Positions 3,561 through 38,445 of a DNA stretch of 64,000 nucleotides are shown piece after piece. How positions within the stretch are numbered: the stretch's first letter is position 1; each line of letters opens with the position of its first letter. A model generated the notes under the pieces. It did no database searches. It was not told where the DNA came from and saw nothing but the letters and a program-made list of their open reading frames with translations. The stretch lies in sequence record OR424388.1; one strand, given 5' to 3'. This DNA is from Escherichia phage HEMP5. The position numbers and the translations under genes are program-made.

Positions 3561-3620
3561 GATAATCTCCTCGGTAGTTTATGTTTATATAATATCTCAA
3601 TTTCCAACAAAAGTAAATAG

Positions 3621-3878
3621 TTATTTTAAAACTTCTGCGTAATCACATGTTACAAACTGTTTCTCTAGCTTGACGATTTTACGAAAGTATCTTTTGCATT
3701 GGCGAATCTGCCTCTTCGTAGGACGTACAGCAAACTTAATAAATTCCACTCGACCAAATGGAGGACTTTCTTCTGCTGGAATATCTAACACCAATTCCCA
3801 CGTATCTGCAACAAGTGCTTTGAATTGCGTATTTTTCCTGACATTATACGGAGTAGGTTTAAATAAAACAATATGCAT
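3621..3878 (-). CDS. 61.4: Early protein 61.4 (85 aa). To my recollection this is TifA, the inhibitor of the ToxN toxin.
   Basis: ORF track, 85 aa, basic. Lies immediately downstream of dmd in the same early transcription unit. Confidence 0.8.
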   Translation of the reverse strand: MHIVLFKPTPYNVRKNTQFKALVADTWELVLDIPAEESPPFGRVEFIKFAVRPTKRQIRQCKRYFRKIVKLEKQFVTCDYAEVLK

Positions 3879-3879
3879 A

Positions 3880-4062
3880 TTATCCTCGGCAATCTACTTC
3901 ACATACTTTCTTGTCATCAATGAAAGCTTTAACTAATGCTTTATTAACTTCAGCATACTGAGTAGTAACCCATTGAACATCATCTTTCATCATTGTGGTT
4001 TCTTTAGTAAACATGCTTTCATTCTTAAACCACCCCATAAAAACTACCTTTACCAATTCCAT
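3880..4062 (-). CDS. dmd: Dmd antitoxin (inhibits the RnlA/LsoA RNase toxins)
   Basis: 60 aa, MELVKVVFMGWFKNESMFTKE...VCEVDCRG. Matches T4 Dmd (61.5). Confidence 0.93.
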   Translation of the reverse strand: MELVKVVFMGWFKNESMFTKETTMMKDDVQWVTTQYAEVNKALVKAFIDDKKVCEVDCRG

Positions 4063-4091
4063 AACAATCTCCTCATTTAACCAACAAGACT

Positions 4092-4121
4092 ACTATACCA
4101 TAGTCTTGTCAGCTTGTAAAC
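4092..4121 (-). promoter_or_regulatory. T4-type early promoter driving dmd/61.4
   Basis: Minus strand GTTTACA-N17-(G)GTATAGT, followed by a GAGGAG Shine-Dalgarno and the dmd ATG. Confidence 0.75.
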
Positions 4122-5548
4122 TAAAATTTTAATTCATTCGCCAAAGCATCTAACTGAGCTCGAGTGGATTCATTTCTTTGATAGCGATTCTGTTCAGCCT
4201 GAATCTGTTGTGAACCTGCTACTTCACTCACTTCGGTTGGAGTAGAATCTTGTTCAATTTCTACCCATTTTTGATTTCCTTTTTGAACACCCATCAAAAA
4301 CTTATTCCACTTATTCTTATCACCATATCGTGATTTGATTTGCTTAATAAGTTGTTGTTCAGCAGCTGCCAACTCCTCGGTTTCAATGACCGCAAGCATA
4401 AAATCAGCTGTCGCTGGAAGACCAGCAGATTCTGCGATATCACTCATGTTAACATCGGAAGAGTCCCAAGCTTGTTTACCGACCTGTGCTGCAGTCCAAA
4501 GAACAGTTTCGGTTTCAACAGCAAGAGCACGCAATTCCTCTGCAATAGCTTTAACAGTTGTGTAACTATTTTCTGAATAAACTCTAATGCGGCAAGATTT
4601 ACAAATACCTAGATAGTCGACAATAATGATTGTTGGAACAAAATTCTTCTTGAGCTTCAATTCATTCAAGAGAGACCTGAATGTGTTAGCATCTGCCCCA
4701 CCAGTGGGATACTGTTTAACGATTAAACGACCAAGAGTAGATTTCTCACGCCATTTTTCCATTTTTCCTTTATACTCAGCGTAAGAAATATGCCCATCAT
4801 CAATGTCATCAAGAGAAACATCAAGCATATTAGCATCAATACGCTTAGCACAGACTTCTTCTGCCATTTCCATGGAAATGTAAAGAACATTATGTCCGAG
4901 CTGCAAATAATCTGCTGCCAATGAACAAAGTCCTAATGATTTACCAACGTTAACGCCAGCCATTAAAACGTTCAGTGTCCCAGTCTCAGCTCCGCCTTTA
5001 GTAATTTTGTTTAGAATTCTGAGTTTAAATGGAACCTTACGAGCTTTATTCATATAAGATAGCCAACGTGCTTCGTAGTCATCCATCCAATCATGACCAA
5101 CGTAACTATCAAATGAAATTGATAATGCTTGGCGCATGATGTCAGGAATAGCACCAACGTCCGGCATTTTCTTATTTCGTTTTTCCGGAGGAAGCTCAGC
5201 ATTAGTTTGAATTTCGATTATTTTAGACGTAGCATTAAACATCGCCCTTTGCTGAACATATTTTTCTGTTTCTTTTACTAACCAGCTGTGGTCTTCCGGA
5301 GAATCAGCTAGTTTTGAAATAAGTGTTTTTACACCAGAATATTCTGTTTCAGTAAATGAACTATTTTCTAATGCAACATTTAACGCATTAATAGATGGAA
5401 CGCTATGGTACTCGTTAACATGAGATTTAATTAATTTGAACGTATTTTTAGCTGGACCACTTTCAAAATATTCTGAATCCATATATGGCCAAACTTTTGA
5501 AAAATAAGCTTGATCAAATATGAGATGAGAAAGAATAATTTCTACCAC
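4121..5548 (-). CDS. 41: Replicative DNA helicase, gene 41
   Basis: 475 aa with GTG start (MVEIILSHLIFDQ...) and Walker A GVNVGKS. Matches T4 gp41. Confidence 0.97.
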   Translation of the reverse strand: MVEIILSHLIFDQAYFSKVWPYMDSEYFESGPAKNTFKLIKSHVNEYHSVPSINALNVALENSSFTETEYSGVKTLISKLADSPEDHSWLVKETEKYVQQRAMFNATSKIIEIQTNAELPPEKRNKKMPDVGAIPDIMRQALSISFDSYVGHDWMDDYEARWLSYMNKARKVPFKLRILNKITKGGAETGTLNVLMAGVNVGKSLGLCSLAADYLQLGHNVLYISMEMAEEVCAKRIDANMLDVSLDDIDDGHISYAEYKGKMEKWREKSTLGRLIVKQYPTGGADANTFRSLLNELKLKKNFVPTIIIVDYLGICKSCRIRVYSENSYTTVKAIAEELRALAVETETVLWTAAQVGKQAWDSSDVNMSDIAESAGLPATADFMLAVIETEELAAAEQQLIKQIKSRYGDKNKWNKFLMGVQKGNQKWVEIEQDSTPTEVSEVAGSQQIQAEQNRYQRNESTRAQLDALANELKF

Positions 5549-7996: not shown

Positions 7997-8733
7997 TTCC
8001 ACTCACCTTTATAGTCTTTTTTCACAATATGAGTTTCGCCAGTATTCCACCAATGATCAACCAAGTAAAAATGACGAGAATATACATGAAGACTTCCGAC
8101 ATTCCATATAATAGAACCTGCTTTATACTGACGAGTTGAATCGCCGGCATTCAAATCAGATACTAATTTATCTAATACGTATTTTTGCCATGCATAATCA
8201 TTGCGGAATCCGAAGACCACGTCATTTGAGCGCATGCTTACTACTGCATTTACTTTCTTATCACGAATCAGGTACTGTACTGTATTAGTACACATGAAAT
8301 CTGACATACCATCTTTATTGTAGTCAAATTGCATGGATGGACGAGTATAAATCATGATACCACGCCGAGAATCAGGATTTTGACCAAGTTCAGCTAAACA
8401 CATATCATACTGGGCATAGTTATCTTCTGACCAAATAGCCCAACCATAATTCGAGTTAATTTCGCCTTTAGAAGATGCTACCTGCTGCCAAATCTTTGGT
8501 GTTTCACCTGGAATATCTTTAACAAACAAGCTCTTAGATTTATACCATTCAAGTTCGCGCTGAATGTATTCATCATTAAGAGCGCCAAAAATAAACGGTT
8601 CATCTGCTACAAATGATGCGCCAATAATTTCAATAGTTTTAACACCGGTTTTATCAACTACGAAATCTTTTTCTTTTAATGCAAGCCCCAAATGAAGACG
8701 GATTTCTTCAACTGTCATAGAGTCACTAATCAT
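7993..8733 (-). CDS. 42: dCMP hydroxymethylase, gene 42
   Basis: 246 aa, MISDSMTVEEIRLHLGLALKEKDF... Thymidylate-synthase-like. Matches T4 gp42. Confidence 0.97.
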   Translation of the reverse strand: MISDSMTVEEIRLHLGLALKEKDFVVDKTGVKTIEIIGASFVADEPFIFGALNDEYIQRELEWYKSKSLFVKDIPGETPKIWQQVASSKGEINSNYGWAIWSEDNYAQYDMCLAELGQNPDSRRGIMIYTRPSMQFDYNKDGMSDFMCTNTVQYLIRDKKVNAVVSMRSNDVVFGFRNDYAWQKYVLDKLVSDLNAGDSTRQYKAGSIIWNVGSLHVYSRHFYLVDHWWNTGETHIVKKDYKGEWK

Positions 8734-8740
8734 TTAAACC

Positions 8741-8890
8741 TCAATTGATACATTCATATTTAACTTGTAACAGTAATAAGCTCCAACCTAAAATAATAGT
8801 TGGAATCATAAGAGGAACCGTTACACTATAGTATATACTTATTATAATCATCAAGATTAAAAGCAACACTGTTATAATTTTGCTTTTCAT
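8741..8890 (-). CDS. Small membrane protein (49 aa)
   Basis: ATGA overlap with the upstream stop. Hand translation: MKSKIITVLLLILMIIISIYYSVTVPLMIPTIILGWSLLLLQVKYECIN. Two hydrophobic segments. Confidence 0.6.
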   Translation of the reverse strand: MKSKIITVLLLILMIIISIYYSVTVPLMIPTIILGWSLLLLQVKYECIN

Positions 8891-9138
8891 TCCTTCTCTC
8901 TGATGATAATTACCTGATTTGGTTGTGCAGACTTTTTAGTTTCACCCGCAATTGACCAAATAAATGTAATAAACCAACCAATAATTGACCAGTTAAACAG
9001 TAAAGACGTGAAAAAGATTCCTACTGTTGATTTTGACCCACGCATCAAGGCGATGAACCATGGAAGCATGTATATAATAATAGCCAACACACCTGAAACT
9101 AAAACCATAAAAATTGAACCTGCTACTAAAGTTTCCAT
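8887..9138 (-). CDS. imm: Immunity (superinfection exclusion) membrane protein Imm
   Basis: 83 aa with two transmembrane segments, between 42 and 43. Size and position match T4 Imm. Confidence 0.75.
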   Translation of the reverse strand: METLVAGSIFMVLVSGVLAIIIYMLPWFIALMRGSKSTVGIFFTSLLFNWSIIGWFITFIWSIAGETKKSAQPNQVIIIREKE

Positions 9139-27725: not shown

Positions 27726-28211
27726 TCAAGTATTGTAAAACATTTGATTCAATCGCTTATATTGCCGAATCTTTTGGTCAGAAAAAGAAATTTGGGTTTC
27801 AAGCCATTCAATATATTCTGCCGCAGCTTGCATCAAATTTCCTTCATAGCCATCGTTATTTTCTTGTGCAGCTAATTTAGCTAATGCATATGAAATACGT
27901 TCACCTTGAAAATCGGCTTTAGGCTTCTGAACAACTTGATTAGTTCGCTCTACAACTTCTTCAATTTCGCCATTTTCTACTGATTCAGTATTCCACAAGC
28001 ACCAATACGTAATTGGCTTATCGTAGATGTTAATAATCTTTCCATCAGAAAGTTCAATTTCAATAATTCCAGTATCAGGCTCTATATCATCTTCACATTC
28101 TTTTGCAAGTTCACGAACTTTAAAGACAGTACCTGCACTAAGTTCCGGCCAGTAATTACACAGCCCTGTATCAGCACGATTAATTCTAAACCACTTATCT
28201 ACTGTAATCAT
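27726..28211 (-). CDS. pin: PinA, inhibitor of host Lon protease
   Basis: ORF track 27726..28229. The ATG at 28211 (MITVDKWFRINRADTGLCNYWPEL...) gives 161 aa, as in T4 Pin. Confidence 0.88.
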   Translation of the reverse strand: MITVDKWFRINRADTGLCNYWPELSAGTVFKVRELAKECEDDIEPDTGIIEIELSDGKIINIYDKPITYWCLWNTESVENGEIEEVVERTNQVVQKPKADFQGERISYALAKLAAQENNDGYEGNLMQAAAEYIEWLETQISFSDQKIRQYKRLNQMFYNT

Positions 28212-28350
28212 GTCCCATCTCCATATCAATTAAGTCATTTATCGTTGGTTCATTATATATTGTTTCTTCATCAGTGTAAACCGGTTCTTCCGGCTCTGGC
28301 TCTACAGTTTCCCATCTAGCCGCCCACCAAGGTTTTATAGCGTAATCCAT
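28195..28350 (-). CDS. Possible small acidic protein (51 aa)
   Basis: Hand translation MDYAIKPWWAARWETVEPEPEEPVYTDEETIYNEPTINDLIDMEMGHDYSR. Overlaps both neighbours by a few codons and fills a gap that is otherwise non-coding. Confidence 0.45.
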   Translation of the reverse strand: MDYAIKPWWAARWETVEPEPEEPVYTDEETIYNEPTINDLIDMEMGHDYSR

Positions 28351-28655
28351 TCTCGTACTGTCTGAGTTACTACACGTTCATGGGGCTCGACTAGTTCAAC
28401 AGTCGGAACTGCATAATACCAGTCAGAATGATAAGAACCTGACCGAGATTCATTTACAGCCACATGTACATTATGTTTTGGACTAAAGTAAACACACTGA
28501 CGATATTGACATTTACCATCTTGCACCCAGTCTTCTATTTCGACAGGTTTAAGATAATCGGAAAAATCGAAATCATAGTTTTCCGAAAATGCATCATGGT
28601 CTTCAATGATTTCGCTCAGAACTGCATCAACATCTAATTTATTTTCAATAGTCAT
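28335..28655 (-). CDS. Hypothetical protein (106 aa)
   Basis: ORF track. Confidence 0.75.
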   Translation of the reverse strand: MTIENKLDVDAVLSEIIEDHDAFSENYDFDFSDYLKPVEIEDWVQDGKCQYRQCVYFSPKHNVHVAVNESRSGSYHSDWYYAVPTVELVEPHERVVTQTVREWITL

Positions 28656-28665
28656 TTTTCACCAA

Positions 28666-28836
28666 TTAATTTCGCAATTTATTAAGTTCTTCATCATCAA
28701 TCCAGGATTCTAGTCCTGATGGCAGGTCACATTCAATTTCCCAAAGAAGTTCTTCAATTTTCTGAAGACGATCTAGTTCTTCGGCTGGAATAGTAACCAT
28801 TGACGGAGCTCGTGATACATTAATATCGTAAATCAT
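28666..28836 (-). CDS. Hypothetical acidic protein (56 aa)
   Basis: ORF track 28666..28875. The ATG at 28836 lies just after the upstream stop (MIYDINVSRAPSMVTIPAEELDRL...). Confidence 0.6.
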   Translation of the reverse strand: MIYDINVSRAPSMVTIPAEELDRLQKIEELLWEIECDLPSGLESWIDDEELNKLRN

Positions 28837-28838
28837 AT

Positions 28839-29054
28839 TTACCCCAGTTTGACCATGCAATCGCCGTATTTCCACTTAGAAATAGACTTTTCGCCATTAG
28901 AATAATAAACTTCGAGTTTAGCACGATTATTTTTAATTTGAATAACCTTGGCTGTCATCAAAGTTCCATACCCATAATAAACTGCAACTTCATCACCTAC
29001 ATATACCGCGCTTCCGCGGTAATCATGAATATAGTCAGTTCCTTCGAGCATCAT
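28839..29054 (-). CDS. Hypothetical protein (71 aa)
   Basis: ORF track. ATG overlaps the nrdC stop. Confidence 0.7.
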   Translation of the reverse strand: MMLEGTDYIHDYRGSAVYVGDEVAVYYGYGTLMTAKVIQIKNNRAKLEVYYSNGEKSISKWKYGDCMVKLG

Positions 29055-29314
29055 TTAAAATATTCTCGCAGTTGGTCAAATCCACCAATATGACTTCCAT
29101 TAGGAGCAAATACCTGAGGCATTGTCAAGCCGATTTGAGTATCACGACCTAGTTTAGTCAGAAGCTCAGCGATTTTCTCATCATCAAAAACACCTTTTTC
29201 CGGCATAATGTTGATAAATTCAAACGGCTGTTTCTTCACAGTCAAAAGACGTTTTGCATTATCGCAATACACGCATTTATGAATGTTGCTATCATAACCA
29301 TATACTTTAAACAT
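29051..29314 (-). CDS. nrdC: Phage thioredoxin/glutaredoxin
   Basis: 87 aa, MFKVYGYDSNIHKCVYCDNAKRLL... with CVYC active site. Matches T4 NrdC. Confidence 0.96.
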   Translation of the reverse strand: MFKVYGYDSNIHKCVYCDNAKRLLTVKKQPFEFINIMPEKGVFDDEKIAELLTKLGRDTQIGLTMPQVFAPNGSHIGGFDQLREYFK

Positions 29315-29315
29315 A

Positions 29316-29558
29316 TTATTCCTTAATTCCTAGTACTTGTTTAAAAGTCTCGTCGTAATCAAGACTTTGGCCCGTTTGTTCTTTATGTTTGTATATAATA
29401 TCACTTACTTCTGATAGCATATTTTTATATGAACGAGTTAAAGCAGATTTAAGCACGCTGTATCTATCAGGAAATTTACCGTGTTCATTATAATAAGCTA
29501 TTGCTAATTCACGGACTGCCTTTTCAGCAGCCTCCATATATTCTTTACGCTTGGTCAT
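29316..29558 (-). CDS. nrdC.1: Conserved hypothetical protein (80 aa)
   Basis: ORF track. Symbol assigned by ordinal synteny: exactly 11 ORFs follow nrdC, as in T4. Confidence 0.75.
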
Positions 29559-29560
29559 TT

Positions 29561-29950
29561 TTAATCCAAAATATTATTAGGCATTGGTTGAACACTCACA
29601 AGTTCTTTAAAGAACTCAGTAGAGTCAGGCAATTTAACCATTTCCGGAGCATGCTTACTGAATTTATGTTTACATTGACGGCATTTATATTCAAGCTCTG
29701 GTTTACGCCAGTTAATCAACTGAACTTGTTCAGTACCGCATTCAGGGCAATTAGGAACGTTTTTAGAAGCTCTTTCACGTCGTTCAACCATAGCCATAAT
29801 AGCATCCCATGCTGGAGGTTTAAAATCTAAATCGTCGCAGCCGTGAATCTTTCCACGCATTTCCATATCATCTTCCTCACCAGCCATAATAATTTTAATT
29901 AAACTGGAATTACTTGAAGCTGCAATGTCTTCTAATAAACGCTTTTTCAT
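29561..29950 (-). CDS. nrdC.2: Conserved hypothetical zinc-ribbon protein (129 aa)
   Basis: ORF track. CPECG...CRQC four-cysteine ribbon. Confidence 0.78.
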
Positions 29951-30876
29951 TTCAATACCTCAATAGCATTACGTAAACCATTTGCTTTTGCATTAAGAGC
30001 TTTTAACAATTTGGTGTGTTCTGCAATTTGGGCTTCAACTTCAATCAAACGGGCATTGAGATATTCACGTTCTTCACTCAGATTATCAACCTTTTCTACT
30101 TTAGGCTCTTTTACAACTGTCTTATATGTATTAGGGTTCTTCAGTTTAATTAGAATGCGTGAACTGTATAACATTGAACCATTATCTTCGGTTTCGTCAT
30201 ACATTTCCACTACGTCCATAATTTTTAACATCATGCGGAGTTTATAAGACAACGAACGAATAGTTTTGTTGTGCTTATTAATTTCTTTAGCTGTCATGGT
30301 GCCAAGATTACGTGAGTAATAATAAGGAACCTGGATATTAATTAATACTGATGAACCACCTGGCTTGTGTGTTACTTCATCAGCAATAACCCAGTCCTTA
30401 ACATGAACTGTATTTGTACGGTCATCGCCCGCGGTAAATAGTTTGCGAGCATGCTTAAAAAGCATATTCACTTGGTCATTGAATTGACAAGCAAATTTAT
30501 CAGCAAATTTAGTTTCAGGAATGGTAGAAAACCAATCAGCCAAATGAGTCTTTTTAACATCATTAACAATAGTAAATTCAACCAAATCGGTTATAGATGT
30601 CTCAGATTTAATGAAGCTCGGCTTCATAAAGTTTTTAATGTTCTCATGAGCTACAGTAGAAGATAACATACGAGAACGTTTAAACCATTCAAGCAAATTG
30701 CCTAACGAATGAGAATAAGCGTTTTGAGTATCTTTACAGATATGATTTTCCTGACCAACATATTGAAGGAAATCACGAAGAATATTATTGATTACTGCTC
30801 TGTGCCCGATCTGATAATTACGGTGTTTAGTAATAAGACTGTCAAAATAATCAATATAATGTTTACGAGTTTTCAT
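29947..30876 (-). CDS. nrdC.3: Member 1 of a four-gene tandem paralog family, C-terminal coiled coil (309 aa)
   Basis: ORF track. Shares its architecture with the next three genes. Ends ...[20 protein letters not shown]. Confidence 0.82.
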   Translation of the reverse strand: MKTRKHYIDYFDSLITKHRNYQIGHRAVINNILRDFLQYVGQENHICKDTQNAYSHSLGNLLEWFKRSRMLSSTVAHENIKNFMKPSFIKSETSITDLVEFTIVNDVKKTHLADWFSTIPETKFADKFACQFNDQVNMLFKHARKLFTAGDDRTNTVHVKDWVIADEVTHKPGGSSVLINIQVPYYYSRNLGTMTAKEINKHNKTIRSLSYKLRMMLKIMDVVEMYDETEDNGSMLYSSRILIKLKNPNTYKTVVKEPKVEKVDNLSEEREYLNARLIEVEAQIAEHTKLLKALNAKANGLRNAIEVLK

Positions 30877-30928
30877 ATTCTTCTCACTTGGTTAATGGTT
30901 TATACTCCGAGCCATCCTTGGCTTTAAA

Positions 30929-31930
30929 TTACTTAATTAACTGTAAAGCTTGTTCAAGACGATCAAGACGATTAACGGATTCTTCCCAAATCTTTTTAGC
31001 CTGCTCATATTCTTTCTGCGCTTTATTAGAAATTTCTAGAACTTCTTTATAAGCTTTTTCTAGTGCAATAACTTCTGGACGAATTTCTACTGGTTCAGGC
31101 GAATCGTCAAGACATTCCATTAGTTCCTCGAGGGTAGTTTCTTCTTTAGGAGTATTCACAATTTCATCACATTTTTGTTGGTAAATTTCTTTATCAGTCG
31201 GTGAGTACGCACACTTTACTCCACGGAGACTAACTACAATTTTATATCCTTCCCAACCGCATATATTCTTAAAAGGATAAGTATGAATATTTTCTACTGT
31301 TTCCATACAAAGTAATGCGGTCTCTAACTGACGAGTTATATCGCTAGCAATTGAGAAAAATTTATTAATGTTCTTTTGATTAGCTTCTGGTGTAAAAAAT
31401 TCATAATTCACAAAAATAGCTGCTTTATTTTTATCAAGCTCATATTCTTTTATGATAATCATATCAGAAGCCCAAGGATGGATTTGACGATAATCACCAT
31501 AGCATAATTTAGAAGCTGATTTTAGAATTTGCTTCTTGAAAAGTCTAAAATTACTAATCCAACGACGAGTAAAAATATTCTCAGGGTCTTCTTTATTATT
31601 AAGATGATAAGAATTAACATCACCGAACCAACTGTATCCTACTACATCTTTAGTTCGTTTAATTTCTTTCCCAAATTTACCAAGAATATCTTGATTAACT
31701 AAATATGAAAGAAGACGAGAACCTTTAAAAGTTTCCTTAATATCATCTTTATATTCGCGACTAGAAATTTTATGAACTTCATGAATAAATTTGCTTGAAG
31801 AAACAATACTTGCATCAATATTATTGAGCCATTGATTGATAATGGAAATAACACTATTCTGACTAAACACAGGTTTAACTTTATCATCAATAACGCTATT
31901 GAATGATTTGATATATTCGTTACGAGTCAT
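30929..31930 (-). CDS. nrdC.4: Member 2 of the tandem paralog family (333 aa)
   Basis: ORF track 30929..31981. The ATG at 31930 follows GAGGAGATTAAT and an early promoter (MTRNEYIKSF...). Confidence 0.82.
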   Translation of the reverse strand: MTRNEYIKSFNSVIDDKVKPVFSQNSVISIINQWLNNIDASIVSSSKFIHEVHKISSREYKDDIKETFKGSRLLSYLVNQDILGKFGKEIKRTKDVVGYSWFGDVNSYHLNNKEDPENIFTRRWISNFRLFKKQILKSASKLCYGDYRQIHPWASDMIIIKEYELDKNKAAIFVNYEFFTPEANQKNINKFFSIASDITRQLETALLCMETVENIHTYPFKNICGWEGYKIVVSLRGVKCAYSPTDKEIYQQKCDEIVNTPKEETTLEELMECLDDSPEPVEIRPEVIALEKAYKEVLEISNKAQKEYEQAKKIWEESVNRLDRLEQALQLIK

Positions 31931-31958
31931 ATTAATCTCCTCAGTAGAAAGTAAGAAC

Positions 31959-31988
31959 ATTATACCACATCCTTGTGGCAAAGTAAAC
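31959..31988 (-). promoter_or_regulatory. T4-type early promoter
   Basis: Minus strand GTTTAC-N17-(G)GTATAAT. The -35 element overlaps the stop of the upstream gene. Confidence 0.75.
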
Positions 31989-33007
31989 TAGTTTAGTGCA
32001 TTTAGTGCATTGTTCAGTTTAGAACGTTGCTTCGTAAGATTTTTGACTTTTTCTTGAGCTTTTTCTAGCATCTTTTCAGCTTCTAACACTTCATTAGTTG
32101 CTTTAACGAGTTCATCATCTACTGCCTTGATAGACTTCTCAATCGCATCCGCGTGCCATTTTTCAACAGGTTTAAAACTCGGATTTTCAACAGGAAGAAA
32201 ATTCACTTTATTGAATTTCCATGTATCTTTATTACCTGAACTATACATCCAAAATTTAGGATCGTTTGATGAGTAATTGGATAAATTTAAGATATCTTGC
32301 ACTTCCTGCTTTTTCTCTTGCGGGACTTCGTCCTTTCTCAAAAAATCGTATTTAAATGAAACGATCATATCAAGTTCATACGTTGTTGTATGTTCCCAAT
32401 TTCGCTCAAAATGAGGTAAAATCTTAGACTGAACCGCGGCAACTACATCCATATACTTAAATGCTTCTGTCAACTGTGATTTAAGGCATTCACAAATTGA
32501 AAGAGAATTTTTTGTATTAGGTTTAAAGCTAATTCGTGCAGTTCTGTTATTTTCTTTTAATGGTCTTACTTCCATCTGAAGAGTATAACCATCAAATTTC
32601 AGATTCTTTAAGTTAATATCAGAACCTTTTAATCGACTAGCCGTCGACAAAATTTGCTTTAATTGTTTACGGAATAGAGCAATAAATCTCCACTCAATAC
32701 GATAATGATTTGGATTGAAAAATCCAGATGATAAATCGACCTTACTCTGACCAACACCTTGAACAAATAGAGGATTTTTATAATCAATAGTTTTACAGAA
32801 ATCAGTGAGCTGCTCACGAGCAGTCATTTGTGTAATATACCCCGCTTTACTAAAATGACGTAATAATTCACTGCTATTTAGATATTTAAAGTGAATAGCA
32901 CGATTAACTTTATCAGGGTCTAAATTATTTTCACACAAAAATGTCATAACATTACGAGTATCGCTGCCAGTACGAACCATATCTTCAATTTGAGAACGAG
33001 TTTTCAT
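31988..33007 (-). CDS. nrdC.5: Member 3 of the tandem paralog family (339 aa)
   Basis: ORF track. Ends ...KVKNLTKQRSKLNNALNALN. Confidence 0.82.
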   Translation of the reverse strand: MKTRSQIEDMVRTGSDTRNVMTFLCENNLDPDKVNRAIHFKYLNSSELLRHFSKAGYITQMTAREQLTDFCKTIDYKNPLFVQGVGQSKVDLSSGFFNPNHYRIEWRFIALFRKQLKQILSTASRLKGSDINLKNLKFDGYTLQMEVRPLKENNRTARISFKPNTKNSLSICECLKSQLTEAFKYMDVVAAVQSKILPHFERNWEHTTTYELDMIVSFKYDFLRKDEVPQEKKQEVQDILNLSNYSSNDPKFWMYSSGNKDTWKFNKVNFLPVENPSFKPVEKWHADAIEKSIKAVDDELVKATNEVLEAEKMLEKAQEKVKNLTKQRSKLNNALNALN

Positions 33008-33015
33008 GGTGTTCC

Positions 33016-33903
33016 TTAAGATTTAAGTAAATCAACAATTTTAATTAACTTTTCACGCTCAGATTTAGCTTTACTACTCAGTCCAGATAGTCTGAAAATT
33101 TCATCATCATATTGTTGAATAGAAATATTCAGCTCTTCAATCTGTTTATTAAAATAATCAATTTGTTCAGAATGTTTTTCGTTACTACGAACTGGTACAG
33201 GTTTTGTAGGCAATTTAGTTGAACTGGATTCATCCGGGCGATAAATTAAAACACAACTTGAACCAATAGGGCATTTTGCACCAGATGAATATTCTAATGT
33301 TCCAGCTTCTTTTAAAACTTCAAAAGCTAAACAGAGATGATGCCCCATATTAACATAATCTGTAGAGCGAGCTCTGATGTAATAATCATCGCCGCGAATA
33401 CTAAATTTAAAGCATTTAAGGTCTTCTGTATTATTGGTCTTAAAAATCATTTGTTTATCTAGACCTTTAGCTAATCGAGCGCCTAATGCTAATAATCGTC
33501 TTTGATTTTCCCACAAATCCGCAATCATTTGATCGAATGATAATTTTGGCATTAGTCGACCATAAAGGTCATATCCTTTATTATAATTACGAAGGATTTC
33601 ACTCGCATTAATACGAGACAATGCTCCAATTTTATTAAGGGCTTTCATAATGCGATTAGATAAACTCATTCCAGATCCGTTTGTTCGCTGCAAATGTTTT
33701 TCTAATCCAAATCCAATATCAACTTTAAACTTATCTAAAATTTCTGCATGAACATCTCTGTCAATAACATTCAAATCCAAAGTTGAGTTAAATCTATGAA
33801 AAAATTTATCTGGCTCTGCACTGCGAAATACAGTCCATTCATTTAATTTTTTATTAACTAAAGATTTAATTACTGCATTGACATTATTAATTACTACTGA
33901 CAT
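33016..33903 (-). CDS. nrdC.6: Member 4 of the tandem paralog family (295 aa)
   Basis: ORF track 33016..33924 begins at a TTG. The ATG at 33903 follows GTGAGGAAAAT (MSVVINNVNAVIKS...). Confidence 0.8.
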   Translation of the reverse strand: MSVVINNVNAVIKSLVNKKLNEWTVFRSAEPDKFFHRFNSTLDLNVIDRDVHAEILDKFKVDIGFGLEKHLQRTNGSGMSLSNRIMKALNKIGALSRINASEILRNYNKGYDLYGRLMPKLSFDQMIADLWENQRRLLALGARLAKGLDKQMIFKTNNTEDLKCFKFSIRGDDYYIRARSTDYVNMGHHLCLAFEVLKEAGTLEYSSGAKCPIGSSCVLIYRPDESSSTKLPTKPVPVRSNEKHSEQIDYFNKQIEELNISIQQYDDEIFRLSGLSSKAKSEREKLIKIVDLLKS

Positions 33904-33910
33904 ATTTTCC

Positions 33911-34318
33911 TCACTCAATTTCAATTTTACTAAATATACAGAATAAGATGGAACAGACTATATAAGCACCACACACAGATTGAACTAATACCATTCCAAA
34001 GAACCAAACAATATTATCAAACAATGTCTGTTTTACGTCGAAAGGACGTAAACTTACAGTAATATTATCACCTTTTTCTATTGAAGAATACATCTCTGGG
34101 GAAATATATTCACTAAATCTATAACCATCTTTGAGTTCATATACGGCAATAAACGATAAACTAGACCCTTTTCCTTGTGTTCCTGTAATGGTATTAACTA
34201 CAGTAACATCATAATCTTTATAATGCATATAATCATTAATTGCGTAATAACCATATGCAATTACTACACATAAACAACATATCAATAAATTCAATCTTTT
34301 AATTATCAACTGTTTCAT
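33911..34318 (-). CDS. nrdC.7: Membrane protein (135 aa)
   Basis: ORF track. N-terminal and C-terminal transmembrane segments. Confidence 0.78.
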   Translation of the reverse strand: MKQLIIKRLNLLICCLCVVIAYGYYAINDYMHYKDYDVTVVNTITGTQGKGSSLSFIAVYELKDGYRFSEYISPEMYSSIEKGDNITVSLRPFDVKQTLFDNIVWFFGMVLVQSVCGAYIVCSILFCIFSKIEIE

Positions 34319-34373
34319 AATAATCTCAATTAAAAGGGCTTAGAACCATTATACCATCCTTGGTATAAAGCGG

Positions 34374-34901
34374 TTATGCGAGTACCGTCTTTAACCGTTC
34401 TTCAAACTTCCGAAGAGTATTTTGGCGTTCAGCTCTTTGCTTTTTGTAAGTTTCAATACGCTCTGAAATGAGAGTGTATCGTTCATTTACTGATTCTTTC
34501 ATAAAATCAGGAATTTCACGAGAAGCTTTAATCTCGTCAAATTTATCAATAACAGCTTGCTCTTCAGCAATTAAGTTATCATACATTAAAATATCTTTCT
34601 TGATAAACTCAATATCTTCTTGAGTTACACGAGATAATTTAGATGCTTTATCCTTTTTGTACTGTTCGTTAGTATCACGAGACCAGTGTAATGTACGATT
34701 TTTATTCGTATTTTTGTAAATTTCTACAATACCGATCTCATCGATAATAACGATCCAATTCCAACGGGATTTGTAAATTTGTCCTCCATCAACAGTGATT
34801 TCACCTCCGATTGAGATGTCATTAAAGAACTTGCTTTGCGCTTCAGATTTAAATTTACCATCGTTGTAATTTACTAAGTTGAAAATATCTTTAGCGTTCA
34901 T
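34374..34901 (-). CDS. nrdC.8: Conserved hypothetical protein (175 aa)
   Basis: ORF track. GGAGGAACAGAAA Shine-Dalgarno after an early promoter. Confidence 0.8.
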   Translation of the reverse strand: MNAKDIFNLVNYNDGKFKSEAQSKFFNDISIGGEITVDGGQIYKSRWNWIVIIDEIGIVEIYKNTNKNRTLHWSRDTNEQYKKDKASKLSRVTQEDIEFIKKDILMYDNLIAEEQAVIDKFDEIKASREIPDFMKESVNERYTLISERIETYKKQRAERQNTLRKFEERLKTVLA

Positions 34902-34929
34902 TTTCTGTTCCTCCGTAGTTGATAGTTGT

Positions 34930-34959
34930 ATAGTACCACAGAGGAACAGTCTTGTAAAC
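34930..34959 (-). promoter_or_regulatory. T4-type early promoter (cassette family)
   Basis: Minus strand GGTTTACA-N17-GGTACTATACAACTATCAACTACGGAGG. Confidence 0.78.
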
Positions 34960-34961
34960 CA

Positions 34962-35264
34962 CTAAAAGAAACTTCTTTCACAATTTTTTCCACTGAACCA
35001 TGCGCTTACCGCTTTCTTAGTCTCAGGAGCAGTGTTATCCATAAACCATTCAAAGGCAGCCTTTTTATGATTCTGGAGGGCTTCTCGGGCTTTAATCTGC
35101 TCACGGTCTATTAACACTAACATATGAGCCTTTCTTGTCACCATGGGCTTCTTATGATTTTTTGAATACTCCCAGTCATTTGTCCATCGCATTGTCGTTG
35201 CGAACTTAAATACTGCTTCTTTAATTTTAGTTTCGTAAATTTCACGAGCCTTTGAGTATAACAT
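34962..35264 (-). CDS. nrdC.9: Conserved hypothetical protein (about 100 aa)
   Basis: ORF track 34962..35276. The ATG at 35264 has the best spacing from the GGAGG. Start uncertain by 4 codons. Confidence 0.72.
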   Translation of the reverse strand: MLYSKAREIYETKIKEAVFKFATTMRWTNDWEYSKNHKKPMVTRKAHMLVLIDREQIKAREALQNHKKAAFEWFMDNTAPETKKAVSAWFSGKNCERSFF

Positions 35265-35365
35265 CATTACCTCCATTCACCAGTTTAATTCTAGTCATCT
35301 TTTTAATGGCAGTCCATATAATCTATTTCTGAACTGCCTTTTTGTCATAGAAGTCCTCTTATGAA

Positions 35366-36334
35366 TTATTTCAGAAGAGTAACCTCAGCAATTTCTTCCC
35401 AACCGTTTTTGTCGGTCATAATAAAGTCAGCAAGATAAAGAGCAGTACGCAGTGAAACATTGCGTAAACGATTAACATTAACTTTCATCCATGATAATGC
35501 TTTATAAGTTTCTTCATCAGAAAGACCGCGCTTTTGCATCATGTCAGTTGAAAGAATAACATCTTCAACCCTGACCATAATTTCTTCATTAGTGTGAACA
35601 CCCAAATCCAAATAAACCGAGCGGGACACTAATGCTTGTAAATGTGGAGCAAGTTTAGTACCACGGTCTAATTCGCGGTCAATGTCAACGTTTGTGATAA
35701 AAACAATCGTTCCTTTAAATTCAAACTCACGCTCAATGCCTTTTTCTTCTAAGTAAGAAGACGCAGTGCTCCAGCAGACTTTACGGGTCTCTCCGGTGTC
35801 CAGAGCAGCTTTCAGAAGATTAAGAATGTCCATATCAGAGAAAACATCCACATCATCAATCAAAAGGACAGAATTCTCTTCACGATTATTCCAAAGCTGT
35901 TCATAAAGACCAATACCAGAGATTTTACCATTAATGCTTTTATATTCAATGTATCCAATATCATTTGCTTTATTTAAAGCTTTATCTAAAGAATACGTTT
36001 TACCAATGCCTGCCGCACCAGAGATAATTAATGAACGAATGTTTCCGTTAATAATACCATTCGTCATCATTCCCATAACATTAAATCTTTTATTAATGCG
36101 GGTTTTCATATCTTCATACGATTCTTTAACTTCTTCAACTTTTACACCATCATATGAAATGTCTGATTTGTAAACCCAAACACCGCGACGTTTACCGTCA
36201 ATTTCAACAAAAACTTTACCATCTCCTTGTGCATCTACTGGAGCATTATCTGGGAACCATTCGCCTAAGAGCTCAAAAGTTCCAGAGATTTCTTTACCGA
36301 AGTAGATACCCTTATTGATAGTTACAGTTTTCAT
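35366..36334 (-). CDS. nrdC.10: AAA+/P-loop ATPase (322 aa)
   Basis: ORF track 35366..36478, but its first 48 codons are promoter and leader. The ATG at 36334 gives MKTVTINKG... Walker A GAAGIGKT, Walker B VLLIDDVD. Confidence 0.85.
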   Translation of the reverse strand: MKTVTINKGIYFGKEISGTFELLGEWFPDNAPVDAQGDGKVFVEIDGKRRGVWVYKSDISYDGVKVEEVKESYEDMKTRINKRFNVMGMMTNGIINGNIRSLIISGAAGIGKTYSLDKALNKANDIGYIEYKSINGKISGIGLYEQLWNNREENSVLLIDDVDVFSDMDILNLLKAALDTGETRKVCWSTASSYLEEKGIEREFEFKGTIVFITNVDIDRELDRGTKLAPHLQALVSRSVYLDLGVHTNEEIMVRVEDVILSTDMMQKRGLSDEETYKALSWMKVNVNRLRNVSLRTALYLADFIMTDKNGWEEIAEVTLLK

Positions 36335-36368
36335 TTTATTCTCCAAATCCGTATCAGTTGATAGTTGT

Positions 36369-36398
36369 ATAGTACCATAAAGCTTTATGCTTGTAAAC
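36369..36398 (-). promoter_or_regulatory. T4-type early promoter (cassette family)
   Basis: Minus strand TTTTTTCACAAAATTGTTTACA-N17-GGTACTATACAACTATCAACTGATACGGATTTGGAGAATAAAATG. Near-identical to the copy at 9774-9860. Confidence 0.8.
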
Positions 36399-36420
36399 AA
36401 TTTTGTGAAAAAATTTTTGA

Positions 36421-36448
36421 AATAAAAAAGGGAGCCCGAAGGCTCCCT
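36421..36448 (-). terminator. Intrinsic terminator with UUCG loop after nrdC.11
   Basis: Minus RNA AGGGAGCC-UUCG-GGCUCCCU followed by UUUUUAUU, 1 nt after the stop. Confidence 0.8.
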
Positions 36449-36449
36449 A

Positions 36450-37463
36450 TCATTTATAATAACTTCGGTGGTTTTCAAGATAAACCTGTTCGAGGAAATT
36501 ATTCCAAAAGCTCATATCTACTGTTTTAGGCATACCATTCTTAGAAGCTTCAGTAGATGCTGCTTCTACTTGATCGACCACATCTTCCAAAAACTCTTGA
36601 ACTGTTTTAAATGGATGTTTACCCAACTTCACGTCGAGAATAAATGGAGCATCTTGGAGTGGATAAACCAAGTCACCAGTTTTGTAAATTTCCAATAGTT
36701 GAAGTCCACCACGACAAGCATGACTCAGAGCTTTCCAGTCAATACCTTCATTGGCTTCGGCCTTACGAGCACGTTCACCATATTCAGCATCTAATTTGTT
36801 CAGTGACTGCTTAAGCTCAATAAGAGAAAGCGTTGTCTGATATTTACGACCCAACACTGTGTAGAACGTTTGTGGACCTGTTTTCTCATGATTATGGAAC
36901 ACCCATTCACAGAATTCGTTTTCTGGAAGACGATGCTTAATATCTTCAACTTTAGTGCGACGCTGCTTAATAGAACCATCTTCTTGGTAATCAACCCATT
37001 GCTCAGGGATTTGATTAACTACTTTCAATACATCACGTAATGCAGCCAAACGAGAACCCTTGACACCGTATTTAGAAGCTTGCTTGCGGACATATCCTAA
37101 ATATGATTTCATGTTAGTCGTATAAAAACGAGAACGGTTGTCTTGAATAAACTTCCACACATCAGGCAAATCAGATTTAACCACTAGTTCAGGTGGAGTG
37201 TGAAGCATATCCAACGCTACAGTTTCACCATCTGCCGCTAATTTAAAGAAATACTTAAGACTGTATAGTTCATGGTCAATATCATCTTTAGTGTTTTTAG
37301 ATGATGTGTTGTTAGTGTTTTTACTCATGTGCTCTTTGACATTTCCGATAAGAATATCGCGAGCAGGAGGAACAAAGATTTCTTTAAAATCTACATCAGA
37401 TTCTGGGGTAGAAGTTCCATAAAGATGACTACCAAAATAGCTTTTCATTACTGTTTTCATCAT
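36450..37463 (-). CDS. nrdC.11: Pol-beta-superfamily nucleotidyltransferase-fold protein (337 aa)
   Basis: ORF track. N-terminal motif GSHLYGTSTPESDVDFKEIFV (G-S...D-x-D minimal NTase signature). Confidence 0.8.
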   Translation of the reverse strand: MMKTVMKSYFGSHLYGTSTPESDVDFKEIFVPPARDILIGNVKEHMSKNTNNTSSKNTKDDIDHELYSLKYFFKLAADGETVALDMLHTPPELVVKSDLPDVWKFIQDNRSRFYTTNMKSYLGYVRKQASKYGVKGSRLAALRDVLKVVNQIPEQWVDYQEDGSIKQRRTKVEDIKHRLPENEFCEWVFHNHEKTGPQTFYTVLGRKYQTTLSLIELKQSLNKLDAEYGERARKAEANEGIDWKALSHACRGGLQLLEIYKTGDLVYPLQDAPFILDVKLGKHPFKTVQEFLEDVVDQVEAASTEASKNGMPKTVDMSFWNNFLEQVYLENHRSYYK

Positions 37464-37921
37464 TCAGCCTTATATTCAATAACAGGACATACTTTAGCTT
37501 TACGCGCTTTTAAAAATTCGACGATAATAGATTTCTTGGGTTGAATAGGAGGTAAACCTTTATACGCCCTATCAATATTTTCTACATGTAAAGCATAATC
37601 CTTTTTCCATTTATAATCTTTATATTTTTCATGCAGTTGTGCAGGAATAACAAATGAACCAATAATAAGTAAAATAAGCAAAATGGCAAGTATAAATGCT
37701 GATGGAATAAGAGTCCATAAACTACCAAAAATAAGCCATTTCTGTATGATTTCTGCACAGATAATAGTTAGACCTGCGAGTATAGTACATCCGAAAAAAG
37801 AAACGAAAAATGTAGGGATAACAATAGACCAAAAGTATGCACACAGTGTCTTAGGTCGTTTCCATTCGTCGTTAAACAGTTTGAATAATTTATAGTGCCA
37901 AGAGTTTTCATTAATAATCAT
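37460..37921 (-). CDS. Multi-pass membrane protein (153 aa)
   Basis: ORF track. Three hydrophobic segments. Stop overlaps the nrdC.11 ATG (ATGA). Confidence 0.78.
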   Translation of the reverse strand: MIINENSWHYKLFKLFNDEWKRPKTLCAYFWSIVIPTFFVSFFGCTILAGLTIICAEIIQKWLIFGSLWTLIPSAFILAILLILLIIGSFVIPAQLHEKYKDYKWKKDYALHVENIDRAYKGLPPIQPKKSIIVEFLKARKAKVCPVIEYKAE

Positions 37922-37923
37922 AA

Positions 37924-38445
37924 TTATCCTTTCATTGAAGGTGTAACAGTTGTTAAATACTTAATCATAGCTTCAGCTTCTGATTTTGATAATGAAATTT
38001 CTCCATTGTTTTGACGAATAGAAATAAAATCCGGATGACGGTCACCACCAGCTTTTAAAACACACATATAAGTATCAGTTTCATCTTCAATATCTGAAAT
38101 GATTGAAGCAGTTCCACATGAATGTGGTTTTTGATAAATCAATACAGCTTTTCTTCCACCGTTTGACTGTTCATAAACTTTTAACACATCAAACAAATCG
38201 CTTCTTTTATCAATAGCTAAGATGTTGTTTTCATCTTCAATATTAAATCCTTCGGATACTTCATAAAGTGTCACCCATAAATCACCAATATCAATAACAG
38301 CGTTCACTTTTCCATGACTTTCAAGAGCATTACAAATTTTCTTAATTTCATCATAACTCATTTTAATAATATCATCTCCTTGAATAAGGAAGATGTCATT
38401 TTTAAATTCAACGCGAATTAAACCACTTCCACTTGAAATAAACAT
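37924..38445 (-). CDS. Hypothetical protein, tandem paralog A (173 aa)
   Basis: ORF track. Shares GFNIEDE and SKSEAEAMIKYLTTVTPSM with the next gene. Confidence 0.78.
   Translation of the reverse strand: MFISSGSGLIRVEFKNDIFLIQGDDIIKMSYDEIKKICNALESHGKVNAVIDIGDLWVTLYEVSEGFNIEDENNILAIDKRSDLFDVLKVYEQSNGGRKAVLIYQKPHSCGTASIISDIEDETDTYMCVLKAGGDRHPDFISIRQNNGEISLSKSEAEAMIKYLTTVTPSMKG

Follow-up and report, generated by a model that had tools for sequence, protein, structure and literature searches.

Bacteriophage T4 is the best-studied lytic phage and still about 4 kb beside its nrdC gene are annotated as hypothetical. This raises the question whether the four genes of this segment, nrdC.3, nrdC.4, nrdC.5 and nrdC.6, belong together and what they do for the phage. 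Here, we analyze their orthologs in a stretch of 64,000 nucleotides from Escherichia phage HEMP5 (sequence record OR424388.1), the whole of which is called the window below. An earlier inspection of the letters alone (the original prediction) had described four consecutive genes for proteins of 309, 333, 339 and 295 amino acids as one tandem family of the kind typical of counter-defence genes. Profile comparisons show that nrdC.3, nrdC.4 and nrdC.5 are homologous, and they make nrdC.6 a probable, more distant relative within the family. We consider it moderately probable that the four proteins, descending from one ancestral gene, neutralise host anti-phage immune proteins stoichiometrically. 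Counter-defence by nrdC.5 is already published and it is plausible for nrdC.3, nrdC.4 and nrdC.6; new here is the union of three database families with single-copy genes of other genera in one superfamily, together with a map of its conserved and variable parts.

The gene array in the window

The window belongs to the genus Tequatrovirus. Over the 3978 bases of 29947-33924 it shares 99.9% identity with Yersinia phage PYps32T, and this stretch has matches in 656 phage records. Open reading frame (ORF) listing and translation reveal four adjoining ORFs at 29947-33903, all on the minus strand like every feature within them, and this confirms the lengths and outer coordinates of the original prediction. 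By alignment to the annotated T4 record they are orthologs of T4 nrdC.3 (29947-30876, 309 amino acids, phrog_1435 with E 8e-116), nrdC.4 (30929-31930, 333 amino acids, phrog_1435 with E 8e-166), nrdC.5 (31988-33007, 339 amino acids) and nrdC.6 (33016-33903, 295 amino acids, phrog_2257 with E 1e-152). The start of nrdC.4 is the ATG after GGAG, which gives the 333 residues; a longer ORF from TTG reaches 31981. Amino acid identity to T4 is 61% for nrdC.3 and 91% for both nrdC.4 and nrdC.5, and nrdC.6 shows 86% globally (with the 275-residue T4 annotation) and 96% over the aligned part. For comparison, nrdC, nrdC.1 and nrdC.8 of the window are 99% identical to T4. The gene coordinates of the BASEL phage Bas37 are collinear with the window at a constant offset.

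The short T4 nrdC.6 originates from record NC_000866 (5967-6794 of the extracted locus), where the annotated protein of 275 amino acids has a different C-terminus and an apparent frameshift is located just ahead of the conserved tail. In another T4 record and in the T4D annotation that served for transposon sequencing nrdC.6 encodes about 296 amino acids.

Tests of homology among the four genes

By BLASTP a link is seen only between nrdC.3 and nrdC.4, which share 25% identity over 229 amino acids, and Pfam and PHROGs divide the array into three separate families. The first one, phrog_1435 or PF26897 (Phage_T4_Y04OP, carried by nrdC.4 homologs), already joins nrdC.3 and nrdC.4 but excludes nrdC.5, nrdC.6 and the single-copy genes of Moon-, Winkler-, Karam- and Jiaodaviruses, which are linked here by profile comparison. 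The second one is represented by nrdC.5 with its match to DUF7235 (PF23882; 413 bits with the cut-off at 30, E 8.9e-124; residues 1-339 aligned with model positions 1-307 of 307); the DUF7235 model gave no direct match with nrdC.3, nrdC.4 or nrdC.6. In the third one, phrog_2257, all 105 of 105 nrdC.6 homologs carry PF26899 (Phage_T4_Y05B).

For comparison with hhalign the profiles were built from alignments of database homologs and of the loci of other genera. The pair nrdC.3 and nrdC.4 reached 98.3% (E 2e-14), the pair nrdC.4 and nrdC.5 reached 92.5% (E 5e-7 over 260 columns), and the combined nrdC.3 and nrdC.4 profile matched nrdC.5 with 96% (E 5e-9). With the C-terminal tails removed the two pairs gave 98.4% and 93.2%, respectively, and the tails alone showed no significant profile similarity between the families. 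Since the values hold without the tails, the homology signal is not a coiled-coil artefact. A profile of five single-copy genes from other genera also found nrdC.5 (97.7%, E 1.5e-12), nrdC.4 (89%) and nrdC.3 (88%). At the DNA level the repeats among the four genes comprise only short matches of 14-27 nt, so that no recent duplication or gene conversion is indicated.

The case of nrdC.6 has to be weighed separately, because its resemblance to the others might be due only to helix richness, a coiled-coil end and the shared locus, without homology. Its pairwise hhalign values against the single families remain at 1-10%, and a plain hidden Markov model (HMM) search is marginal, with nrdC.6 ranked first among 98 window ORFs at E 0.033 and the next decoy at 0.068. 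Additionally, Foldseek with the nrdC.6 model returned no entries of the nrdC.3, nrdC.4 or nrdC.5 families among the significant matches; the library seems to be without a close nrdC.5 entry, because the nrdC.5 model gave no near-identical match. Nevertheless, we regard non-homology as unlikely. Against the merged nrdC.3-5 profile nrdC.6 scores 76-84% (E ~1e-5) over the N-terminal 128 columns, and against the single-copy profile 79% over 216 columns with core and tail covered; judged from the profiles, the single-copy genes are the best sequence bridge to nrdC.6. Furthermore, the protein contains three collinear motifs, its model shows the same order of β-β-α-β-β, linker and helix, three significant Foldseek neighbours are common to it and nrdC.5, and the gene occupies an orthologous position in three genera. 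This means that the single tandem family proposed originally is firm for nrdC.3, nrdC.4 and nrdC.5 and, on weaker evidence, probable for nrdC.6.

Two other candidates were rejected. The nrdC.8 protein, which is also helix-ended and could have been a truncated member, stayed below 2% in hhalign against every family, and in Mineola and KM16 the gene for about 260 amino acids that adjoins the single-copy member on its upstream side stayed below 1%. Acj9p122, found by Foldseek with the nrdC.6 model and undetectable by sequence, is kept as a possible member.

Shared motifs, tails and predicted structures

The central basic helix described originally is present and collinear in all four proteins. 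In nrdC.3 its motif position is amino acids 132-147 (30436-30483) within a central module of net charge +3. The helix of nrdC.4 (amino acids 122-142, 31505-31567) is aligned by hhalign to that of nrdC.5 (amino acids 104-126, 32630-32698; modelled as helices 104-114 and 116-127), and the corresponding modules, amino acids 60-145 and 45-127, each have a net charge of +7. The same charge is found for amino acids 81-150 of nrdC.6, whose basic helix spans amino acids 128-148 (33460-33522; helices 123-132, 134-144 and 147-150 in the model). In 56 nrdC.6 homologs the motif NQRRLxALGARLA is invariant. The isoelectric point (pI) of the whole protein is 9.2-9.3 for nrdC.3, nrdC.5 and nrdC.6, and 6.1 for nrdC.4.

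A second motif, MDVVE, METVEN or MDVVAA, occurs at amino acids 220, 209 and 186 of nrdC.3, nrdC.4 and nrdC.5, respectively, and nrdC.6 has LAFEVL at amino acid 192 in a helix equivalent to it. It had been taken for a second conserved helix; the motifs are there, but in the nrdC.5 model they mark the end of a helix and the start of a strand. An extra common motif, absent from the original prediction, reads SRMLSSTVAHENIKNF / SRLLSYLVNQDILGKF / AGYITQMTAREQLTDF / IGALSRINASEILRNY at amino acids 68, 71, 55 and 92 of nrdC.3 to nrdC.6 and precedes the basic helix by about 36-64 residues. All motifs are collinear in the four proteins.

Heptad-repeat tails, as expected from the first inspection, score above shuffled sequences in all four cases. 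They comprise amino acids 265-309 of nrdC.3 (29950-30084; heptad score 0.82 against 0.51 for shuffles), 283-333 of nrdC.4 (30932-31084; recognised by heptad score and conservation), 283-339 of nrdC.5 (31991-32161) and 242-295 of nrdC.6 (33019-33180). Shuffled sequences attained the observed value of this crude score in a fraction of 0.000, 0.030, 0.000 and 0.007 of cases, respectively. Among the 98 window ORFs of at least 80 amino acids exactly these four end with the pattern hydrophobic-x-x-[AIV]-hydrophobic-x-x-hydrophobic-[KN], which was defined post hoc after inspecting the tails. In all four families conservation is highest in the C-terminal tail and in the central helices (in nrdC.3 the tail is the most conserved segment of all with 80%) and lowest in the N-terminal region and the β-domain. 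The divergent N-termini of the original prediction are confirmed insofar as this region is among the most variable ones, but nrdC.3, nrdC.4 and nrdC.5 all begin with M(K)TR.

Structures were predicted with AlphaFold2 from family alignments, as monomers only, for nrdC.5 (predicted local distance difference test, pLDDT, 72.5; predicted template modelling score, pTM, 0.59) and nrdC.6 (pLDDT 78.5, pTM 0.66). Both models display the same order of elements, namely N-terminal helices, two helix pairs of which the first corresponds to the extra motif and the second to the basic helix, a β-β-α-β-β unit, a linker of low confidence (227-281 in nrdC.5, 227-241 in nrdC.6) and a C-terminal helix. The latter is predicted as a single 56-residue helix (283-338) in nrdC.5 and as a helical hairpin (242-271 and 277-294) in nrdC.6. 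In a Foldseek search against predicted viral structures three significant matches were common to both models: A0A2S1GM98 of Erwinia phage Cronus (E 5e-8 with nrdC.5, 1e-3 with nrdC.6), A0A2Z4QAR2 of Klebsiella phage Mineola (2e-7 and 3e-4) and E5E4A2 of Acinetobacter phage Acj61 (6e-6 and 2.5e-4). Unrelated folds were thus not seen for this pair.

Within nrdC.3 a segment of amino acids 30-86 (30619-30789) shows a weak, sub-threshold likeness to the N-terminal SAM-like domain of XerC/D tyrosine recombinases (Pfam E 0.12, NCBIfam E 0.003-0.03, far short of the cut-offs).

Copy number, synteny and origin

The family locus occupies the same syntenic place across genera, directly upstream of an nrdC.2 or nrdC.2-like gene. 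One copy is found in Moonvirus, Winklervirus, Karamvirus and Jiaodavirus, three copies in Mosigvirus (nrdC.6-like, nrdC.5-like and nrdC.3-like) and Dhakavirus (nrdC.6-like, nrdC.5-like and nrdC.4-like), and four in Tequatrovirus. In phage Mineola the gene directly upstream of the nrdC.2-like gene encodes 326 amino acids, a length equal to that of the Foldseek match A0A2Z4QAR2, and by sequence it is a relative of nrdC.5 (92%). Equivalent single genes occur in KM16 and NM4.3 (Moonvirus), CBH8 (Winklervirus) and RZH (Karamvirus); together with the Mineola gene they make up the profile of five single-copy genes. The simplest history leads from one ancestral gene to three and then to four copies. 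These duplications are old, because no DNA-level similarity is left between the copies.

When the nrdC.3-5 profile was run against 1.84 billion representative proteins, only 17 clusters came up, which indicates that the family is narrow and confined to T4-like phages. In six of these 17 clusters that were examined the nrdC.6 family was not recognisable, so this search alone does not tie in nrdC.6.

Among about 502 Tequatrovirus records, matches of at least 80% identity were present in 501 for nrdC.6, 495 for nrdC.5 and 464 for nrdC.4. Copy number inside this genus is nearly fixed at four and the variation lies mostly between genera, so that the survey suggested by the original prediction shows copy-number variation at the higher level but hardly any within Tequatrovirus. 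Neither unrelated folds nor uniform conservation across relatives was found. A few phages deviate: ACG-C40 has kept only nrdC.6 and remnants and has lost nrdC.3 to nrdC.5, Pinarejo has lost nrdC.6 apart from its tail, and in HY03 nrdC.4/.5 are broken (split). On the 167-kb metagenome contig L016 (locus 3570-4900) the middle of nrdC.5 is fused to the C-terminal half of nrdC.3, and at the junction ...WKFNKVN is followed by MLFKHARKLF.

Two unusual proteins should be mentioned here. In the nrdC.6 protein of Shigella phage Sf25 (P0118; 378 amino acids) an internal segment of about 83 residues, comprising β-domain and linker, is duplicated in tandem. P0232 (173 amino acids) carries the exact nrdC.5 tail (window 32018-32149) on 120 unrelated N-terminal residues, for which neither the window nor 50,697 phage records contain a match.

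Rate and pattern of divergence

The array evolves much faster than its neighbours. Between genera the identity is 21-26% for nrdC.5, 32-52% for nrdC.6 and 39-45% for nrdC.4, compared with 64-89% for nrdC, 68-84% for nrdC.8 and 78% for nrdC.10. In the same set of about 502 Tequatrovirus records a protein at least 99% identical to that of the window was found 482 times for nrdC.10, and 41, 4 and 3 times for nrdC.4, nrdC.6 and nrdC.5, respectively. The nrdC.3 proteins fall into allelic classes with about 60% (T4, T2 and T6 type), 73-78% (Mosigvirus type) and at least 93% identity. A cassette of nrdC.2 and most of nrdC.3 (29528-30724) has only 33-70% nucleotide identity to T4 between flanks of 96-99% and looks like an allelic replacement. 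The nrdC.2 protein has 129 amino acids in the window and 104 in T4, with a sub-threshold zinc-ribbon match.

The pairwise ratio of nonsynonymous to synonymous substitution rates (dN/dS) is 0.29-0.31 for nrdC.3, 0.18 for nrdC.4, 0.16-0.18 for nrdC.5 and 0.07-0.16 for nrdC.6, compared with 0.01-0.04 for nrdC.8 and nrdC.10; the value of 0.07 for nrdC.6 against T4 falls inside the range of nrdC (0.04-0.16). Because these ratios stay below 1 the genes are functional, and in comparison with nrdC.8 and nrdC.10 the constraint is relaxed but real.

Putative role in counter-defence

One member of the family has a published function in T4. Neither ECOR17 nor MG1655 with the dsr1 gene of ECOR17 supports growth of an evolved T4 clone with deletions (PMC9391042), and T4 nrdC.5 expressed alone brings back plating of the deletion clone on Dsr1 cells (PMC9391042; Srikant, Guegler, Laub, eLife 2022). 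The claim that the block has no assigned function was thus wrong for nrdC.5. Dsr1 is a SIR2 NADase. According to a 2026 preprint it senses the major capsid proteins of phages through a TPR domain, which it shares with Avs7 (PMC12803255). The window gene at 31988-33007 is the ortholog of T4 nrdC.5 by identity, by the same neighbours and by its full-length DUF7235 match; the activity is known for the T4 protein only, by genetics. In the literature we found no paper that gives nrdC.3, nrdC.4 or nrdC.6 a function or treats the four as one family.

The surroundings point in the same direction. T6 Gp49.2 is an OLD inhibitor (PMC13096335), T4 nrdC.1 a Septu inhibitor and bas37_0203 a Druantia III inhibitor (both bioRxiv 10.1101/2025.11.20.689424). 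In the window, and on its minus strand, they correspond to the 49.2 ortholog (28335-28655, 96% to T4), the nrdC.1 ortholog (29316-29558, 99% to T4) and the nrdC.8 ortholog (34374-34901), the latter being the positional equivalent of bas37_0203, which by its coordinates is itself the nrdC.8 ortholog. Since the neighbours 49.2, nrdC.1 and nrdC.8 act against OLD, Septu and Druantia III, the locus is an anti-defence island.

We propose that a gene of T4-like phages (Straboviridae), located immediately upstream of nrdC.2, gave rise to nrdC.3, nrdC.4, nrdC.5 and nrdC.6. Each copy encodes an early, dispensable protein of 34-40 kDa that lacks a recognisable enzyme domain. It is predicted to begin with a helical region, followed by the conserved and strongly basic pair of helices, the small β-β-α-β-β domain, a linker that is flexible, and the heptad helix at the C-terminus. 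Conserved core and tail would form a scaffold, which probably oligomerises, and the fast-changing N-terminal region and β-domain would confer target specificity. NrdC.5 would bind Dsr1 directly, e.g., at its capsid-sensing TPR sensor, and thereby halt NAD+ depletion; nrdC.3, nrdC.4 and nrdC.6 may act likewise on other defence proteins. No Pfam or NCBIfam enzyme family above threshold was found in the four proteins, and the domains that NAD+ reconstitution (NARP) would call for were not among the matches. PADLOC and NCBIfam scans gave sub-threshold noise only. A DNA mimic of the anti-restriction type (Ocr) was rejected on charge, in view of the basic pI values (6.1 in nrdC.4) and the core of net +7.

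It is also conceivable that nrdC.5 alone is an immune inhibitor and that the other paralogs serve other early host-takeover roles, e.g., nucleic-acid binding via the basic core, although we consider this doubtful. The positive charge of the core in nrdC.4, nrdC.5 and nrdC.6, the pI of about 9.2 outside nrdC.4 and the SAM-like resemblance in nrdC.3 would fit such roles, and so would the absence of a phenotype for the nrdC.3, nrdC.4 and nrdC.6 orthologs in the three transposon-sequencing comparisons considered. On the other hand, no nucleic-acid-binding family reached the threshold in Pfam or NCBIfam, and the basic core is the conserved part, which the proven anti-Dsr1 protein has as well. Under laboratory conditions the phage can do without these genes: transposon sequencing in T4 and Bas37 classes nrdC.3 to nrdC.6 all as non-essential (bioRxiv 10.1101/2025.11.20.689424), which agrees with the original prediction. 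Finally, they evolve rapidly at a locus packed with proven anti-defence genes.

A more specific version of counter-defence assumes a repertoire on one scaffold, in which core and tail are fixed, whereas diversified surfaces of N-terminal region and β-domain would allow every paralog to block its own member of a related set of host sensors. Candidate targets would be clades of the capsid-sensing TPR sensor common to Dsr1, Avs7 and other effectors. Tails might in addition be swapped as modules, as the example of P0232 suggests. We regard this as rather improbable.

That the four proteins build one hetero-oligomeric complex with one joint function via their similar C-terminal coiled coils is very improbable: the tails are the most conserved parts with a C-terminal pattern common to all four and the genes are adjacent and co-oriented, but plasmid-borne nrdC.5 alone rescued a T4 clone without nrdC.5, in which other paralogs may still have been present (PMC9391042), individual members are missing in ACG-C40, Pinarejo, HY03 and the metagenome contig, other genera possess one or three copies, and the tails themselves do not resemble each other between families at the profile level.

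Stoichiometric neutralisation of immune proteins by all four copies, which we favour, has to be judged against a number of unfavourable points. The function is shown genetically for one of the four only, and this in T4, with 91% identity to the window protein. The direct inhibition of Dsr1 that we infer for NrdC.5 follows the analogy with DSAD1 and DSR2. The orthologs of nrdC.3, nrdC.4 and nrdC.6 had no significant fitness effect in the two Bas37 and one T4 host comparisons considered, i.e., on few hosts (bioRxiv 10.1101/2025.11.20.689424). The counter-defence role proposed originally is thus supported for T4 nrdC.5, but extends to the other three by inference only. With dN/dS well below 1 there is no direct sign of gene-wide positive selection in the four genes. 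The basic core would also suit nucleic-acid binding. To these points the low pairwise hhalign values of nrdC.6 and its marginal HMM search have to be added, and its link to the family is built on profile probabilities below 85% and on fold topology rather than on direct superposition.

Comparison with known systems

T4 NrdC.5 has homologs in the nrdC.3 and nrdC.4 proteins and a probable one in nrdC.6, with the paralogs diverged to about 20% identity or less. A likeness in the working model exists to DSAD1, which is described as a small non-enzymatic phage protein that sits on the sensor region of the SIR2 NADase DSR2 and blocks activation by a structural phage protein. There is no sequence relationship between them, and searches of PDB sequences with the nrdC.5 protein and with the family profile remained empty. 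The targets differ as well, since DSR2 senses the tail tube, whereas Dsr1 has a TPR sensor for the capsid protein. Moreover, NrdC.5 has a coiled-coil tail and its binding is predicted by analogy only.

Other T-even accessory loci, of which 49.2, nrdC.1 and nrdC.8/bas37_0203 share the neighbourhood of nrdC.3 to nrdC.6, are similar in character. Including the dmd-tifA-adfA anti-toxin island, they are early, dispensable, host-specific in effect and lost or amplified by recombination. In contrast with these accessory genes, which are unrelated singletons, nrdC.3 to nrdC.6 appear as one fold multiplied in tandem and diversified.

Because of ancestry (probably also in the case of nrdC.6) and architecture common with nrdC.5, the three orphan genes nrdC.3, nrdC.4 and nrdC.6 become specific anti-defence candidates. 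The map suggests which parts to mutate or swap, namely N-terminus and β-domain for specificity, and core and tail for the scaffold. The family reaches single-copy genes of phages with therapeutic use, namely T4-like phages of Klebsiella, Salmonella, Citrobacter, Serratia and Enterobacter, and the host range of therapy phages depends on such accessory genes.

Further features of the locus

Between nrdC.5 and nrdC.4 the minus strand carries a promoter-like site, TTTACT-17-TATAAT with TG (31959-31987), a putative promoter by its match to the consensus (10 of 12). The promoter scan detected 38 sites against 33 expected and is therefore not informative, with the exception of one strong site upstream of nrdC.4. 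An Rfam scan of 28000-36600 revealed no RNA family.

In Tequatroviruses the gene of the membrane protein nrdC.7 (33911-34318 in the window) is located seven bases upstream of nrdC.6. In three Dhakavirus loci an ORF for a predicted membrane protein of 71 amino acids lies between the nrdC.6-like and nrdC.5-like genes (8829-9044, 8782-8997 and 8675-8890 within the loci). From both observations it follows that a small membrane protein accompanies nrdC.6.

Compared with T4 the window is without mobD, and its nrdD-nrdG region (37464-38427) is without the I-TevII intron and mobC. At 28666-29054, where T4 has 49.3, two small ORFs of 69 and 71 amino acids are found. A strong terminator-like hairpin (8 pairs, 6 of them G-C) followed by a T-run is present on the minus strand at 36429-36448, upstream of nrdC.10.

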